From Phycisphaerae bacterium (GTDB lineage Bacteria; Planctomycetota; Phycisphaerae; UBA1845; Fen-1342): a DNA stretch of 64,000 bases. Made by a program: the position numbers. Below are positions 6,001 to 21,000 of the stretch, one piece after another. Each line of letters starts with the position of its first letter. Positions within the stretch are counted from its first letter, which is position 1. The stretch is taken from NCBI GenBank assembly GCA_963675745.2, contig CAXXWX010000028.1, positions 1 through 64,000 on the forward strand. Reading direction: 5' to 3'.

Positions 6001-9000
6001 TTCAGGCGGCCTGGCTAGGCCCAAAGTCACGCAACCCGGTCGTTCGTAACACTGGTATTCAAACCGGCGCCGCCACATCGGCGCCGAATCGTCACCAGTG
6101 TGGACACCCTAACCCCTTACATATTAATATGTTACTAACCGCGTCGCCCCGCCCGTGCCGGCCACAACCACTGACGCCCACTCCCAACATCGCAATTTTC
6201 GCCAGCGTTTATCGGCATGTCCCCTTGGCGCGGCAGCTATGGGTGATTACACTGGATTGTGAATGATTTCACGAGCGGGCTGAGTTAATTAGTTATCGGT
6301 CGTATTTCGTTCGGCACGCGGGGACCGGTCATGGCTGTCCTTATCTGGACGCCCGGTGACGAAACTGTTCGCAAGTCGGCCCATGAGCCGGACGGGGGGA
6401 AAACAACCACACAAACGCCGACCTCCCAACGCATCGTAGTGGTCGGTCTGGGCAACGAGTTGCTCGGCGATGATGGTGTAGGGATTCTCGCCGCTCGACA
6501 CATACAGCGGGAACTGTCGCCGCAACACCAGGTGCAGATTCGCGAGCTACCCTGGGCCGGGCTCGGGCTGCTTGACGTTTTGCGCGGCTTTGATCGCGCG
6601 ATTCTGATAGACGCGTTATCCAGCGACGGACGTTATCCACCCGGGACGGTACTACGGCTCACTGAGGACGATTTCGCGGGGTCGGTGCGGCTCAATTCAT
6701 TTCATGACATCAACTACCCCACCGCGCTGGCGCTGGGCCGTGCCTTCGGCTGGCCGCTGCCGCGCGCGATCGACATTTTCGCCGTCGAAGGTGGGTCGCT
6801 TTACGAATTCAAGACGCAGTTGTCGGCCCCGGTCGCGGCGGCGTTGAAGACGGTTGTACTCCTGGTCACGCAGATCGTGCGGGGCCACTGTGATGAGGTT
6901 GGCACGAGCGGGTTATACAAATTGGCCGCGGCCGACGTGGCTTGACGCAACCTCTCTTGCCAGCGCAAGAAACGAGAGGTGAGGCGTGCCCTCAGCAACT
7001 GGTATGGCCGCATTGCCGGCGGAGCCCGGCGTATTCGGCAAGACAGAACGGGAGTTGCACGAGGCATTTCTGGCGGAGGTCGACCGGATCCCCGGCGGCG
7101 AACGATTGAGGAGGTGCATCCAGTGCGGCACCTGCACCGGGTCATGCCCGGTGAGCTACGCAATGGACCTCACGCCGCGCGAGGTGGTCGCGTATTTCCG
7201 GGCCGGGGCTATTGATCCCATCCTGCGCAGCCGGACCATCTGGGTCTGCGCCTCATGCTACCAATGCACAACGCGTTGCCCGGCGAAGATCAAGATCACG
7301 GAACTGCTGTATGCGCTCAAGCGCGTGGCGTACGACAAGCGCGTCTTTCCCCAGCGTTTTCCCGTGTACGTGCTTTCCGAGACGTTCGTGCAGCAGATCA
7401 GGAAGTATGGCCGCAACCACGAAGCCGAACTGCTGCGCAAGTACTTCCTGCGCACGGGCATCCGGCGTCTGATCAAGCAAGCCCCGCTGGCGGCGAAACT
7501 GTGGCGCAAGGGATGCATTCGGCTTCGCCCGCAGAAAATCAAAGGCCTTGAGGGCCTGCGCCGCATCATCGCGCGGGCCGAGCAATTCGACCGACCGCCC
7601 ATGCACGAAAAGGAAGCCGGGCGGACACGCGAAGTTGGGTACGAAGCAATCGGCTGATATTACCAAGGGCGCCGGGGCCGCGCTGCGCGCACCCGGCCGC
7701 GCGGAGGGTGCTTCATGGACTATTCCTACTATCCGGGCTGCAGCCTGCACTCCACCGGCGTGGCGTATGACGACTCGATGCGCGCCACGTTCGCCGCGCT
7801 GGGTGCCGGACTCATCGAGCTGGACGACTGGAACTGCTGCGGCGCAACGGCGTACATGTCGGTCAAGGAGACGGTCGCCTGCTCGGTGTCGGCGCGCAAC
7901 CTCGCGCTGGTCGAGCAGACCGGACTGGACCTGATCGCACCGTGCAGCGCCTGCTGGTGCGTGCTCAACAAGACGCGCAAGTTCATGCACGAACTGCCAG
8001 AGCTGCGCCAAAACGTCGAGACGGCGCTGAGGGAGGCGGGGCTGTCGTGCAAGTTCGAGTCGGCGGTCCGGCATCCACTGGAGGTCATTGTCAACGACTT
8101 CGGCGTGGACCAGCTCGTCGCCCGGCAGAAGCGCAGCCTCAACGGCCTGCGGGTGGCGTGCTATTACGGCTGCCAGATCGTGCGGCCGGCGCTGGCCATC
8201 GACGATGACGCCGAGGTGCCCATGGTGCTGGACGACCTGTTGGCGGGTCTCGGCGCGCAGCCGGTTCCGTATCCGCCCAAAGCACGCTGCTGCGGCGGCA
8301 TGCTGGTGGCCACGTTCGAGGATGTGGCCGCCAAGCTGTGCGATGAGCTGGCGAGCTGGGCGCGCGTCGAAAACGCGGATTGCATTGTCACCACCTGCCC
8401 GCTCTGCCACGCCAATCTGGAGCTGCTGCAGGAGAAAGCCAAAGCCGGCAACGGCACCGAGCGCGCGCCGCTGCCCGTCCTGTATTTCACACAGCTCATC
8501 GGCGTGGCCCTCGGTTGCAGCCCCGAGCAGGTTGGCCTGGACCACAACTTCACCGCCCTGCAACACGAATTCCCGAGACTCACGGAGGCGCCCAGCCATG
8601 TCGGATAGTCGGGGCAACAACTCGAAGATCGGCGTGTACATCTGCCACTGCGGCGTCAATATCTCGCACACCGTCGACGTGGATGAGTGTCGTGAGTTCG
8701 CGCGGACATGCCCAAACGTGTCCGTCGCGCGCGACTACAAGTTCATGTGCTCAAACACCGGGCAGGAACTGATCCAGAGCGACATCGAAGAGCTGGGGCT
8801 CGACCGCGTCGTGGTCGCCGCCTGCTCGCCGTTGATGCACGAGACGACGTTTCGCGGCGCGTGCCAGGAGGCCGGGCTTAATCCATACCTCTTCCAGATG
8901 GCCAACATCCGCGAGCAGTGCGCGTGGGTACACGACGATCGCAAAATGGCGACGAAGAAAGCCCAGGCGTTGCTCAACGCCGCGATTCACCGCGTCGCGC

Positions 9001-18000: not shown

Positions 18001-21000
18001 GCTACACCGGCGCCGATCTGGCCGGCGTCTCGCGCATGAAGTGGTCGGCGTGCGTGCGCAATGTGCGCATCATGTGTACCGGACGCATGGACCCCACCTT
18101 TGTCGTCGAGGCCTTTCGCAAGGGCGCCGACGGCGTGCTCATCTCCGGTTGTCACCCCGGCGACTGTCACTACATCCAGGGGAATTACAAAACCCTACGA
18201 CGTGTACATCTGCTGAAACGCCTGCTGGCGGACTTCGGGGTTGAGCCTGAGCGACTAAAGCTCACCTGGGTCTCGGCCAGCGAGGGCGATCGCTGGGCGG
18301 AAGTCACCAACGAAATCACGGAAACCATCCGGTCACTTGGACCTTTGAGGTTGGAACTATGAATGAGGGAGCTGCTGCATCCTCGGATTCTAAGCCGGAA
18401 GCGACGGCAAAGCCCAAACTGGCGCTTTACTGGGCGGCCTCCTGCGGCGGGTGCGAAATCGCCGTGCTCGACATAAAGGAGAAGATCCTCGATGTCGACG
18501 CCAATTTCGAGATCGTCTTCTGGCCGGTCGCCGTGGATTTCAAGACCAAGGATGTCGAGGCTTTGGCCGACGGCGCGATCACGCTCTGCCTGTTCAACGG
18601 CGCGATCCGCACCGACGACAACGAATACATGGCCAAACTGCTGCGCCGCAAGTCACAGGTGCTGGTGGCCTTCGGCTCGTGCGCCATGGAGGGCTGCATC
18701 CCCGCGCTGAGCAACTCAACATCGCGCGCGGCCACGCTCGATTGGGTCTACCGCGACTCCCCATCAACCGACAACGACGCGGACGTCCGACCACAGACCA
18801 CGAGCAAGGTCAACGGCTTCGACATCGAGCTGCCGGCATTCTGGGAGACCGTACGGGCGCTCGATCAGGTGGTGGATGTGGACTATTACGTGCCCGGCTG
18901 TCCGCCGCAGGCACATCAAATCTGGGCCGTGCTCGAGACGGTCATCGACATTCTCAAGACCGGCAAGCCGCTGCCACCGAAGGGCACCGTGCTGGGCGCG
19001 GGCAACAAGAGCTGTTGTGACGAATGCCCGCGCACGCGCGAAGAGAAGAAGATCAGCAAGTTCGTGCGGATCGTTGACGTCATTCCGGACCCCGACAAGT
19101 GCCTGCTGGACCAGGGCATTCTGTGCATGGGACCCGCGACACGTGACGGCTGCGGGGCCAAATGCGTGTCCGTGGGCATGGCCTGCCGCGGCTGCTACGG
19201 ACCGCCGCCCAACTCAAAGGATCAGGGGGCCAAGATGATTTCGGCGCTGGCATCCGTGATTGACTCGGAGGATCCCGAGGAAATCGAGCGCATCCTGGAT
19301 GGCGTCCTTGATCCGATCGGCAGCTTCTATCGCTTCTCACTCGCAACCGCCAGGCTCGGGCGACGACGCATGCCGGGCCAACCGGCGGGCGCCGGCGCAA
19401 CGCGGCACGTAACGGAGGATACACCGTGAAGACGATCAAAATCGATCCGGTCACGAGACTGGAAGGACACGGGCGTATCGACATCTTCGTCAACGACGAC
19501 GGGGATGTGGCCGATTGCTTCTTCGTCGTCCCGGAGCTGCGCGGTTTCGAGCAGTTCTGTGTCGGCCGGCCCGTCGAGGAGATGCCCCGCATCACGTCGC
19601 GCATTTGCGGCGTGTGCAGCGAGGCCCACCACATCGCCGCCGCAAAGGCCTGTGACGCTGTCTATCACGTCGAGCCGCCGCCCGCGGGCCGCAAACTGCG
19701 CGAGTTGCTCTATTCGGCGTTTTTCACGGGCGACCATGCGACGCACTTTTATATCCTGGCCGCACCGGATTTCGTGTTGGGCCCCGACGCCCCGCCGGCC
19801 GAGCGCAATATTCTGGGTTTGATCAAGAAGGTTGGCCTGGAGGCGGGCAAGCGCGTGATCGATGCGCGGGCCGCCGCTCATGAGATTGTCGAGCTCATCG
19901 GCGGCAAGACCGTACACATGGTCAGCGCGATTCCCGGCGGCGTATCGAAGGGGGTGACGAGCGAGCAGCGCGATCGTATGGTCGAACTTGCCGGGCAGTT
20001 GGTCGAATTCGGCAAGTTCACGCTGGACATTCTGCAATCGGTCGTGCTGGATAACAAAGGCTACGTCGATCTGATCCTGTCCGACACGTACACCCATCGA
20101 ACGCACTACATGGGCCTCGTGGACGAACACAACCACCCCAACTTCTATGATGGGCAGATCCGCGTTGTCGATCCCGACGGAGCCCAGGTCGCAAAGTACG
20201 CCGCGCGCGACTATCTCCAACACGTCGCGGAGCACGTGGAGACGTGGTCTTACCTGAAATTCCCTTACCTCAAGGCGCGCGGGTGGCACGGGCTGGTTGA
20301 TGGCAACGACAGCGGTGTGTATCGCGCTACCCCCCTTTCACGTCTCAACGCCGCCGACGGCATGGCGACGCCGCTCGCACAAGCCGAATATGAACGTTTC
20401 TACGAGACGCTCACCGGCGATCGCAGCGGTCACAAGCCGGTGCACCAGACGCTCGCGACGCATTGGGCGCGCGTGGTTGAGCTGGTTTACGCCGCCGAAC
20501 ACACCCTGGAGCTCGCGCGCGACGAGGAGATTCTGGACCCGTGCGTGCGTGTCGTCCCAACGGCCACGCCGGACGAGGGCGTGGCAACTGTCGAGGCGCC
20601 GCGTGGCACGCTCACACATCATTACGTCACCGATGAGCGCGGCGTGCTGACCAGCGTCAACCTGATCGTCGGCACGACCAACAACAACGCGGCGATCTGC
20701 ATGTCGATCAAGAAGGCCGCACAAGCGCTGATTCAAAAGGGCGTCGAGGTCACAGAGGGTTTGCTGAATCGCATCGAGATGGCGTTTCGCGCCTACGATC
20801 CGTGCTTCGGCTGCGCCACGCACACGCTGCCCGGAAAGATGCCAATGGCCGTGCGCATTTTGAATGCAAATGGCGAAGTCCTCGCCCACGGACAGCGCGA
20901 CTGACAAAAAACGCAGACCGAGCCGGCCCAGCGCCCCGATGCGGTTCAAGTCATAGCCGTCGCTGCGGCGGCATCCGCGGCGTAACATCCGCCTGCCATT

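Follow-up and report, generated by a model that had tools for sequence, protein, structure and literature searches.

In solved HdrA complexes, the inserted ferredoxin domain is the low-potential exit, at which FmdF or MvhB dock (PMC12350162, PMC9012536). In class II benzoyl-CoA reductase (BCRII), Bam[(BC)2DEFGHI]2, HdrA-type and HydBC-type bifurcating modules occur in one complex together with a BfuA-type subunit that has three clusters (I1-I3); BamGHI supplies the C-terminal ferredoxin domain and BamF, and BamC/BamB are supplied from the inserted domain (bioRxiv 10.64898/2026.04.10.717634). According to the same work, no complex with two distinct bifurcating modules had been reported before BCRII, and coupled turnover was not demonstrable in vitro owing to short circuits. 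Among Bfu enzymes, WorABCSL takes in electrons at -520 mV by A4-A2-A1-B1 and requires both NAD and ferredoxin, a coupling proposed to permit the oxidation of dilute substrate (PMC12318220), and non-bifurcating homologues lose B2-B5 (PMC9304861). Finally, in type III HdrA and the ANME HdrA9-11 the inserted ferredoxin domain accommodates a module linked to NAD(P), and mvhADG often lies alongside (PMC12054007, PMC9012536).

Layout of the locus

The window, a stretch of 64,000 nucleotides from a Phycisphaerae bacterium (contig CAXXWX010000028.1), holds at 6331-20904 an operon that shares parts with several of these systems. All of its genes lie on the + strand where the survey's finding had placed them, with bfuC/D/B and six regulator-type genes between two halves of hdrA, in the following order:

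6331..6945, +, NiFe-hydrogenase maturation protease (PF01750 and TIGR00072 above cut-off)
7004..7657, +, hdrC, two 4Fe-4S motifs (TIGR03290 at E 1e-22, below cut-off; eight Cys in 61-62 of 62 homologues)
7715..8608, +, hdrB, two CCG domains for non-cubane clusters (PF02754 twice; Cys 9, 41, 42, 77, 80, 153, 192, 193, 228 and 231 kept in 60/60)
8598..9509, +, hdrA N-half, 303 aa: N-terminal cluster domain, FAD-binding GxGxxG, DCAAC pair C198/C201, first ferredoxin motif
9506..9919, +, DRTGG-domain protein (PF07085)
9888..10331, +, RsbT/SpoIIAB-like Ser kinase, HATPase_c_2 (PF13581; TIGR01925 below cut-off)
10336..11670, +, FeFe-hydrogenase-like Fe-S protein: 2x4Fe-4S, Fe_hyd_lg_C, C-terminal FeS (PF02906, PF04060)
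11667..12014, +, second DRTGG-domain protein (PF07085)
12016..12750, +, PHP-family phosphoesterase (PF13263 above cut-off, PF02811 below)
12761..13330, +, HATPase_c, histidine-kinase-like ATPase (PF02518)
13308..13817, +, bfuC (HydC/NuoE), C1 [2Fe-2S] (PF01257; C84, 89, 125 and 129 in 54/54)
13814..14194, +, bfuD/HydD-like thioredoxin-fold ferredoxin (NF041612 below cut-off; H33, C37, C69, C73 and H106 in 47/47)
14194..16080, +, bfuB (HydB): FMN/NAD site, B1-B5 ligands
16093..17853, +, fusion gene, whole: BfuA head and HdrA C-half
16093..16650, +, fusion part 1: Type-2 BfuA head with A1 [2Fe-2S] and two [4Fe-4S] motifs (A2, A4), without His-ligated A3
16651..17853, +, fusion part 2: HdrA C-half with linker, second ferredoxin motif, E291, YCSRVCC, K342, C-terminal ferredoxin domain
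17895..18362, +, mvhD, [2Fe-2S] adaptor (PF02662; C32, 35, 61, 86 and 91 in 71/71)
18359..19429, +, mvhG, hydrogenase small subunit (top match NF045875 VhuG, below cut-off)
19426..20904, +, mvhA, NiFe large subunit of group 3c type, with its two CxxC motifs and a C-terminal extension that can be cleaved (top match NF041785 VhuA, below cut-off; C61/C64 in 69/69, C460/C463 in 68/69)

From hdrB to mvhA, 9 of the 14 junctions overlap and the remaining five are gaps of 1-41 bp; the operon is predicted to be translationally coupled across its length. With HdrABC-MvhAGD of methanogens (5ODC, 8RVU, 7BKB) and the unsplit bacterial group 3c operons (L125-L129), the locus shares MvhA/G/D, HdrB, HdrC and all HdrA domains with their ligands, namely both CxxC motifs of the NiFe large subunit, MvhG, the [2Fe-2S] of MvhD, two CCG domains in HdrB and two 4Fe-4S motifs in HdrC. 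It departs from the methanogen HdrABC-MvhAGD in that HdrA, instead of being a single chain with a free inserted ferredoxin domain, comes as two chains (break at 9509/16093), in that a BfuA head is covalently attached at the low-potential exit in place of a docking ferredoxin, MvhB or FmdF, and in that the host is bacterial. A Hox-type hydrogenase operon is also present in this genome.

The six intervening genes had been called hydrogenase-sensing, for which we find no support. A sensory FeFe hydrogenase would call for an H-cluster made by host HydEFG, and HydF, the marker used for HydEFG, is without a match in this genome and has one in 1 of 50 carrier genomes, which are incomplete. The FeFe-hydrogenase-like protein keeps C140, C195, C298 and C302 in 40/40 sequences, with SPFCP as its motif 1, and in these hosts it probably lacks the di-iron subsite.

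The divided HdrA and its BfuA head

As the survey had it, the break falls inside the inserted ferredoxin domain, directly after the first 4Fe-4S motif. The N-half carries GAGIAG at 154-159 and a single CxxCxxCxxxCP at 250-261 (C250/253/256/260) and then stops, aligning to residues 4-261 of M. thermolithotrophicus HdrA (E 2.8e-97); the fusion aligns from residue 164 to HdrA 244-648, its second ferredoxin motif being C223/231/234/238, and its residues 1-187 align to BfuA/HydA heads. The two halves are complementary and constitute the sole HdrA of this 91%-complete genome, and 23 of 50 carrier genomes have one HdrA-N match each. The N-half motif cysteines, with P266 and R269 of a conserved tail, are present in 48/48 N-halves, all 24 cofactor Cys and K342 are invariant in 60/60 fusions, and the ferredoxin domain at the C-terminus, which receives MvhD electrons, is intact in the same 60. 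E291 is invariant in 118/118 sequences, K342 likewise being scored invariant. K342 and E291 map to Lys409 and Glu356 of 5ODC, equivalents shared with HdrABC-MvhAGD that have been proposed as markers of bifurcating HdrA (PMC12054007), although most HdrA retain them and they are hence weak evidence.

The stop codon and the fusion junction are spanned, with 0-1 differences, by contigs of two runs of one sample, which is possibly the source sample, so that these are not independent. The split is no assembly error: 47 further loci have a stand-alone N-half built in the same way. Further, a single-chain natural version (P0139) unites FAD motif, motif 1, entire head and C-half. The insert does resemble a hydrogenase-type operon with regulators, and the arrangement is patchy (0/200 among other sampled genomes of the same phylum), as might be expected of an hdrA disrupted by a foreign operon, its halves no longer cooperating, or of an artefact. 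Such an origin is nevertheless scarcely credible, being largely refuted by recurrence of the split with invariant ligands in at least 11 named phyla, by the conserved new tail of the N-half, by the predicted translational coupling and by the single-chain forms; nor does this genome hold a second HdrA.

A complex model of the two HdrA halves scored 0.85, against 0.00 for the best of 3 controls; the mark applied was reached by 116/157 solved pairs and by 2/215 mismatched pairs. At least 98% of contacts agreed between runs, partner pLDDT was at least 89, and the N-half contacted C223/231/234/238 together with head residues 132-187. The model supports reassembly of the halves, although its pass may stem from likeness to solved HdrA. 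On the distribution of their ligands, both ferredoxin clusters would have to be shared between two polypeptides, each with three Cys ligands supplied by one polypeptide and the fourth by its partner; the inserted domain would adjoin cluster A4 of the fused head.

The head had been described as HydA/BfuA. Its assignment to BfuA holds, with at least A1 and A2 present, and the HydA type does not, since HxxxCxxC, for a His-ligated A3, occurs in 0/60 fusions; the head is WorA-type (A1, A2, A4), residues 3-186 being near-collinear with WOR-Bfu chain 9mqx_A without a long gap. It thus resembles Bfu Type 2, above all WorABCSL (9MQX; PMC9304861, PMC12318220), in having neither A3 nor A5, in the BfuBC core with B1-B5 and C1, and in an A4 entry from a low-potential donor. 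Unlike in Type 2, where BfuA is unfused and third-substrate chemistry lies on separate subunits only, BfuA is here joined to the third-substrate part, as is characteristic of Type 1, and that part is one half of a different bifurcating enzyme. BfuB matches A. woodii HydB best (824 bits) and T. maritima HydB at 645.8 bits (phmmer), versus at most 366 bits for non-bifurcating NuoF-type chains; its ligands (C27/32/64/68, C469/H556/C562/C567, C486/489/492/532 and eight C-terminal Cys) are kept in 51-55 of 55 sequences, and the B3/B4, B5 and B2/Zn ligands and BfuC are fully conserved. Bifurcation signatures are retained at both centres, HdrA and Bfu, and both are inferred to bifurcate, in the direction proposed below.

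Proposed wiring and energetics

The Bfu module had been placed at the low-potential output of HdrA, and its position at the inserted ferredoxin domain, the low-potential exit of solved complexes, bears this out. We lean slightly towards one soluble complex, MvhAGD-HdrA(N+C)BC-BfuBC(D), with two different bifurcating centres in series. Gene order, split point, ligands and catalytic residues, and distribution form its basis; the wiring, taken over from homologous solved Hdr and WorABC complexes, and the coupling and its direction would be as follows. Electrons from H2 would pass through MvhA-G-D to the HdrA FAD, whence one electron per pair would travel by HdrC to HdrB and a putative disulfide-type acceptor, and the low-potential electron by the inserted ferredoxin domain and A4-A2-A1 to BfuB, which would split electrons again, between NAD+ and ferredoxin. 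The net reaction would be 4 H2 + 2 RSSR + NAD+ + 2 Fd(ox) -> 4 RSH + NADH + 2 Fd(red). The benefit would lie in obtaining ferredoxin and NADH where H2 is very dilute, at a few pascal. For a -140 mV disulfide, the computed equilibrium H2 is 2 Pa in the series, 66 Pa when Mvh-Hdr acts alone and 7e4 Pa for a Bfu hydrogenase; the computed thermodynamic limit for carriers is -701 mV at 100 Pa H2. The conserved design would probably let anaerobes use very dilute H2 for reducing power.

With a -240 mV thiol, the series equilibrium lies at 45-98 Pa (about 100 Pa) H2, attainable in syntrophy, and the reverse becomes feasible. In fermenters, the same complex and wiring might run backwards (double confurcation), NADH and Fd(red) merging in Bfu, entering HdrA via the inserted domain and, with HdrB thiol electrons, driving H2 formation at MvhA as the thiols are reoxidised. 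Both enzyme types are reversible, and an Ignavibacteriae genome study assigned its Mvh-Hdr, from a split or unsplit operon, to reoxidising fermentation NADH and ferredoxin (PMC7509429). Further, DsrA and acetyl-CoA synthase have no match in this genome, so there is no obvious H2-consuming sink. We nonetheless consider such a reversal unlikely: with a -140 mV disulfide it would need H2 below about 2 Pa, and a plain Bfu-type or Hox hydrogenase, the latter encoded in this genome, would evolve H2 more easily. Against the series reading, DsrC likewise has no match in this genome, DsrA is above cut-off in only 10 of 50 carrier genomes, and a recurring conserved gene for a thiol carrier is absent from the 10-kb flanks of the loci.

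The survey's finding had called the arrangement unlike BCRII; by comparison with the structure paper, the series wiring would be the inverse of it (bioRxiv 10.64898/2026.04.10.717634). There, Bfu is upstream, on the BamF side, with the tungsten subunit supplied by the inserted domain; here, a NiFe hydrogenase stands on the input side and Bfu at the exit, by a covalent link, and the operon encodes no BamB/C and no fused HdrA dimer of the BamE kind. The literature searched, of which Appel 2021 was not part, holds no match for Bfu at the HdrA low-potential exit, and the parts of the Bfu classification available to us list no Hdr/Mvh class (PMC9304861). Two coupled bifurcation centres in one complex now have a precedent, and it is this topology alone that lacks one.

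Occurrence and exchange of modules

Our own scan returned the counts given before: 80 loci, 59 with the full fusion, and, among the 40 of these with at least 21 kb of surrounding sequence, hdrC, hdrB and hdrA-N in 40, bfuB in 39, mvhDGA in 36 and the six regulators in 31. Adjacent mvhD is missing in 4 of these 40 and bfuBC in 1, which tells against the series reading; the genomes of these exceptions encode mvhD and bfuB elsewhere, mvhD in 5/5 genomes checked. Compact operons of the form hdrCB-hdrAN-bfuC-bfuB-fusion without adjacent mvhD (L014, L018, L023, L027) would suit an input role for Bfu, with NADH and ferredoxin electrons passing via the inserted domain to HdrA and on to HdrBC, or being split between disulfide and protons, and the hydrogenase optional; for type III HdrA, NADH has indeed been proposed as a mid-potential donor via this domain (PMC12054007). 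We regard this role as very unlikely, given that HdrA gating must then be rewired and that the C-terminal ferredoxin domain is intact throughout, with mvhDGA mostly adjacent and mvhD otherwise elsewhere in the genome.

The long sister form with a GltD insert is the published type III HdrA. The name HdrL is used for type III HdrA and the ANME HdrA9-11 with an inserted GltD/NfnB module. The insert had been located at the same point as the split, which does not hold: the split comes before the PQAxP..IDK linker and the insert after it, about 35 residues later. Type III HdrA is one chain with a GltD flavoprotein, whereas the chain is here broken and joined to a multi-subunit NAD/ferredoxin Bfu unit; a domain search found no GltD domain among the proteins of the window and one in the sister L071. 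In the HdrA tree, GltD-insert and Bfu-plug forms are interleaved, the long forms requiring 3-4 changes and being monophyletic in 0/200 bootstrap trees (AU p = 0.0235), such that the two plugs replace each other within one HdrA subfamily.

This swapping fits a simpler NAD(P)-linked role, in which only HdrA bifurcates and Bfu, standing in for the type III GltD module, is a plain low-potential acceptor to NAD+ or ferredoxin without tight coupling; low-potential input could reduce NAD+ uncoupled. Such a role appears distinctly unlikely, since the ligands of B2-B5 lost by non-bifurcating homologues (PMC9304861) are fully kept here, as is BfuC, WorABCSL remains coupled with its -520 mV donor (PMC12318220), and the GltD/NfnB module may itself carry a bifurcating flavin (PMC9012536). 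Two loci (L004/L006) show the single-chain build with A2/A4 only, and have lost Bfu altogether, a further point against the series reading. Extending the series reading, we tentatively suggest, at somewhat less than even expectation, a hard-wired cascade in which Bfu would re-split the low-potential electron of HdrA, which would allow ferredoxin to be reduced with a few pascal of H2, or carriers far more negative than -500 mV to be reached at usual H2; assembly could gate the wire, its relay clusters each being ligated by two polypeptides, and the inserted domain would be a socket for swapped Bfu, GltD and bare ferredoxin plugs, also on tandem HdrA.

The series complex would be a second case after BCRII, inversely wired and with simple substrates (H2, NAD, ferredoxin), and the coupling of two mechanisms should therefore be measurable without benzoyl-CoA chemistry. 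It bears on the role of bacterial group 3c Mvh-Hdr complexes without methanogenic cofactors, and suggests how low-H2 anaerobes might reduce ferredoxin. In current annotations the fusion goes under the names 'heterodisulfide reductase subunit A' and '4Fe-4S dicluster protein', so that routine annotation does not reveal the design.

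Operon content and distribution

HdrA is encoded in two pieces within a run of 17 genes, all on the + strand:

6331-20904, + strand: the operon as a whole
8598-9509, + strand: hdrA-N, the N-terminal half of HdrA (N-half, 303 aa)
10336-11670, + strand: FeFe-hydrogenase-like Fe-S protein
16093-17853, + strand: fusion of a BfuA head to the C-terminal half of HdrA (586 aa)

Pfam and NCBIfam matches gave, in gene order, a maturation protease, HdrC, HdrB, the 303-aa HdrA fragment, DRTGG, an RsbT-like kinase, the FeFe-hydrogenase-like protein, a further DRTGG, PHP, HATPase, NuoE/HydC, a thioredoxin-like ferredoxin, NuoF/HydB, the 586-aa fusion, MvhD, MvhG, and MvhA. 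From hdrB to mvhA, neighboring genes overlap at 9 of 14 junctions, with gaps of 1-41 bp at the rest, as expected of a single operon; a promoter and terminator scan returned chance levels (1 versus 2.4 expected; 12 versus 11.6). The N-half aligns with residues 4-261 of Methanothermococcus thermolithotrophicus HdrA, while the fusion aligns with HdrA 244-648 from its own residue 164 and, over residues 1-187, with BfuA/HydA heads. No second HdrA was found in the window's genome, which is 91% complete. An assembly artefact or a pseudogene was rejected, given the conserved loci, intact motifs, and contigs from two runs of one sample, possibly the source sample, that cross the stop codon and the fusion junction. 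The genes 3' of the operon for an MsrB-MsrA fusion and for a PAS protein standing alone (23434-24621 and 24773-25114) are not among the neighbors that recur at other loci.

Scanning species-representative genomes confirmed 416 relatives. The best 80 of these were analyzed here, and 59 of those loci carry the full fusion. These belong to the Ignavibacteriota (21), Acidobacteriota (17), Bacteroidota (7), Bacillota-labelled bins (3), Planctomycetota (2), Sumerlaeota (2), and five other phyla (1 each), with 2 unassigned. The survey's finding had tallied gene content at the 40 loci spanning 21 kb or more, and we reproduced its counts exactly: hdrC, hdrB, and a stand-alone N-half occur at all 40, bfuB at 39, mvhDGA at 36, and all six regulators at 31. 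Further, 118 of the best 120 clusters (90% identity) in a protein search span at least 98% of the query. The design was not found in a sample of 200 other genomes from the phylum to which the window belongs, and its spread is thus patchy.

Several loci depart from the common layout. A second, more distant split operon occurs in 4 genomes (L121-L124), and in some genomes a full split operon is accompanied by a compact one (compact copies L014, L018, L023, and L027; second copies L121-L124); the compact operons lack the regulators, bfuD, and mvhD, and lie near genes resembling group 3b NAD(P) hydrogenases. In genome G035, a scaffolded assembly with N gaps, parts of the system are spread over four places (L046, L120, L140, and L141), and at L046, hdrA-N lies immediately 5' of the fusion, with no bfu genes in between. 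One mvhD (G019:C114:34148-34516) carries an in-frame TGA, probably encoding selenocysteine. An Rrf2-family regulator adjoins the operon at 9 loci, mostly from Ignavibacteria (the cluster around L010:2-400; listed as L008-L012, L020, L021, L041, L065, and L072), and hyp-like maturation genes recur at 6-13 loci.

Probable reassembly of HdrA around a Bfu exit

The N-half ends with the first CxxCxxCxxxCP motif of the inserted ferredoxin domain (four cysteines in 48 of 48), followed by a conserved, roughly 20-residue tail in which P266 and R269 are invariant. In 60 of 60, the fusion carries the linker together with the second motif, C223, C231, C234, and C238. In two-cluster ferredoxins, each cluster is held by three cysteines of one motif and a fourth from the other; hence, with motif 1 on the N-half and motif 2 on the fusion, both clusters would be common to the two polypeptides. 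A pairing of the A4 motif of the head with HdrA motif 2 in one chain, as a phmmer alignment would have it, was judged unlikely: the two motifs of the head make up an intact BfuA dicluster domain, and such a pairing also leaves two motifs without a partner.

Complex prediction with N-half residues 1-285 and the fusion scored 0.85, against 0.00 for the best control, at a mark passed by 116 of 157 solved pairs and 2 of 215 mismatched pairs; contacts agreed by at least 98% between runs, with a partner pLDDT of 89 or higher. When a gene is split, its halves tend to pass such a mark through likeness to solved HdrA, and the score therefore speaks for compatibility and not for binding. Beyond simple HdrA-likeness, the predicted N-half contacts head residues 132-187, which we take, assigning ligands after CpI, to surround the A4 cluster, and its tail (residues 266-282) lies within the interface. 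The predicted fold of the fusion alone (pLDDT 79, pTM 0.60) and its Foldseek matches merely repeat the sequence result. Mirror-tree correlations over 38 loci (head versus bfuB, 0.66; N-half versus C-half, 0.75) are confounded by common ancestry and are not taken as evidence.

The head comprises A1 plus a pair of 4Fe-4S motifs. A His-ligated motif is missing in 60 of 60, and the head aligns with the A chain of the Acetomicrobium mobile WorABCSL, a WOR-Bfu enzyme (9mqx_A, residues 3-186), with short gaps only, whereas Thermoanaerobacter kivui HydA aligns in two pieces. The HydA-type head put forward previously is thus rejected, as the head lacks the His-ligated cluster and is nearly collinear with 9mqx_A instead. 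A Type 2 head, in the published scheme, consists of A1, A2, and A4, with electrons entering at A4 (PMC9304861), and judged by its motifs, the head of the fusion is of this type. BfuB keeps all B1-B5 ligands and BfuC keeps those of C1; BfuB scored 646-824 bits against its nine best chains, all from HydB/Bfu-type complexes, versus at most 366 bits against NuoF-type chains.

The Hdr and Mvh sites are likewise kept. K342 and E291 of the fusion align with Lys409 and Glu356 of 5ODC and are invariant in 118 of 118; these residues are proposed markers of bifurcating HdrA, yet are kept by most HdrA (PMC12054007, PMC13514486). The C-terminal ferredoxin domain, HdrB, HdrC, MvhD, and the NiFe motifs are all intact as well. 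Solved complexes take in electrons via MvhD and the C-terminal domain, and the low-potential exit is the inserted domain, where FmdF or MvhB docks (PMC12350162, PMC9012536); the head is therefore fused at that exit. We consider it highly probable that the HdrA halves reassemble, with Bfu, an NAD/ferredoxin bifurcating module, at the low-potential exit.

This wiring is inverted relative to that of class II benzoyl-CoA reductase (BCRII, or Bam), where a cryo-EM preprint places Bfu upstream of HdrA and calls two distinct bifurcating modules in one complex unreported before (bioRxiv 10.64898/2026.04.10.717634). BamGHI has been produced anaerobically in E. coli. A Bfu serving as electron input, as opposed to exit, is a rival for the present operon as well. 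The accessible text of Schut et al. 2022 has no Hdr/Mvh class apart from Bam; the text of the Bfu supplement mentions neither Hdr nor Mvh, and such a type may yet appear in its figures and table. Bacterial group 3c-Hdr clusters are described as being of unknown function (PMC5317091). The split and the fusion were undescribed in the literature searched, a scope outside which most subscription papers fall. The design is real and conserved, is assembled from known modules, and is apparently undescribed so far.

Sister forms and proposed plug exchange

Ten complete long forms (1,128-1,164 aa, counted from where the alignment starts) retain motif 1 as well as the canonical linker and have about 490 additional residues with a second GxGxxG ahead of motif 2; in the one scanned (L071), the insert matches Fer4_20 and Pyr_redox_2. 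They are type III HdrA. Their GltD insert had been placed at the same point as the split, from which it in fact lies about 35 residues downstream, after the linker. Two single chains, at L004 (8828-11452) and L006 (8900-11413), have the split-type tail and A2/A4 without A1 or adjacent bfu genes; they look like a secondary re-fusion in which Bfu was lost and a built-in ferredoxin extension remained.

In a tree of the HdrA core (inserted region excluded; LG+G4; 44 rows, including 22 of about 64 split rows, with long rows picked for their similarity to the query), the long forms require 3-4 changes and form a single clade in 0 of 200 bootstrap trees; their monophyly is rejected (AU p = 0.0235), under a model, LG+G4, that also rejects some true clades. 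The long and L004/L006 forms are nested in a branch with 100/99 support, whose deepest sub-branch is split-type. Separate trees of the N-half and C-half concur in interleaving the forms (8 rows with missed motifs left out). The root within the subfamily is not fixed, its base being where unsplit sisters (L125-L129) and the second split operons meet, and the tree does not give the order of canonical and split forms. We read these patterns as one socket whose plug has been exchanged repeatedly.

Among the best 150 protein representatives (50% identity), 14 have the head N-terminal to an HdrA C-half, including tandem-HdrA proteins (P0125, P0128), an MvhD fusion (P0134), a His-motif head (P0201), and P0139, a single chain holding both the FAD motif and ferredoxin motif 1, together with a complete head and the C-half. 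The head-carrying variants P0125, P0128, P0142, P0163, P0166, P0134, P0139, and P0201 include a case where the head lies inside a single-chain HdrA without the N-terminal domain.

Regulators, proposed mechanism, and acceptor

The six regulator genes behave as a block, present or absent together at 40 of the 40 loci with 21 kb or more. Of the H-domain cysteines, the FeFe-hydrogenase-like protein retains four, and its motif 1 is SPFCP. Of 50 carrier genomes, 1 gave a HydF match, and the window's genome gave none; in hosts without this maturase, the di-iron site should be missing, which leaves H2 sensing, and so the earlier description of the regulators as hydrogenase-sensing, unsupported. Instead of a hydrogenase, the protein may be a cluster-only sensor, and we infer that the regulators form a redox or O2 sensor acting on a kinase/phosphatase switch. 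One literature search aimed at the six-gene set turned up no paper on it.

In the proposed mechanism, MvhA would oxidize H2 and HdrA would bifurcate its electrons to HdrCB and to the inserted domain, from which the low-potential electrons would pass through A4-A2-A1-B1 to a second split between NAD+ and ferredoxin. The NAD couple lies at -320 mV, the value used here. With H2 at -414, disulfide at -140, and ferredoxin at -500 mV (PMC9304861), the computed equilibrium H2 is 2 Pa for the series; for Mvh-Hdr on its own it is 66 Pa, and for a Bfu hydrogenase, 7e4 Pa. A thiol at an assumed -240 mV raises the series value to 98 Pa. WorABCSL offers a precedent, in which -520 mV electrons take the same route, both acceptors are required, and the arrangement is a proposed way to oxidize dilute substrate (PMC12318220). 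Rival readings have the complex running in reverse or Bfu uncoupled; we lean slightly toward the full H2-oxidizing series.

As to the acceptor of HdrCB, DsrC, DsrA, and acetyl-CoA synthase had no match in the window's genome, and across 50 genomes, a DsrC-family match occurred in 30 and DsrA above the cut-off in 10; DsrC or the Wood-Ljungdahl pathway as a partner was rejected for want of a consistent link across genomes. A conserved thiol-carrier neighbor was sought in the flanks, which yielded only hyp-like genes (identified by reading the sequence), Rrf2, and a hybrid kinase. In BCRII, an HdrBC-like subunit hands electrons to ETF (bioRxiv 10.64898/2026.04.10.717634), making a non-thiol acceptor possible, though both CCG sites are complete here.

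The window's genome (G000) also encodes HypD, two further NiFe hydrogenase types, and an RnfD-family match, which runs across two reading frames (G000:C1:186164-187226). A Hox-type hydrogenase and hypD region occurs twice with identical scores (contigs G000:C2 and G000:C16), possibly a binning duplicate. Further along, the window (at 29454-63997) holds an ordinary exopolysaccharide-type cluster, with a heparinase-like protein, a Wzz/ParA chain-length protein, a sugar transferase, a WecG glycosyltransferase, an exosortase, and a TPR protein.
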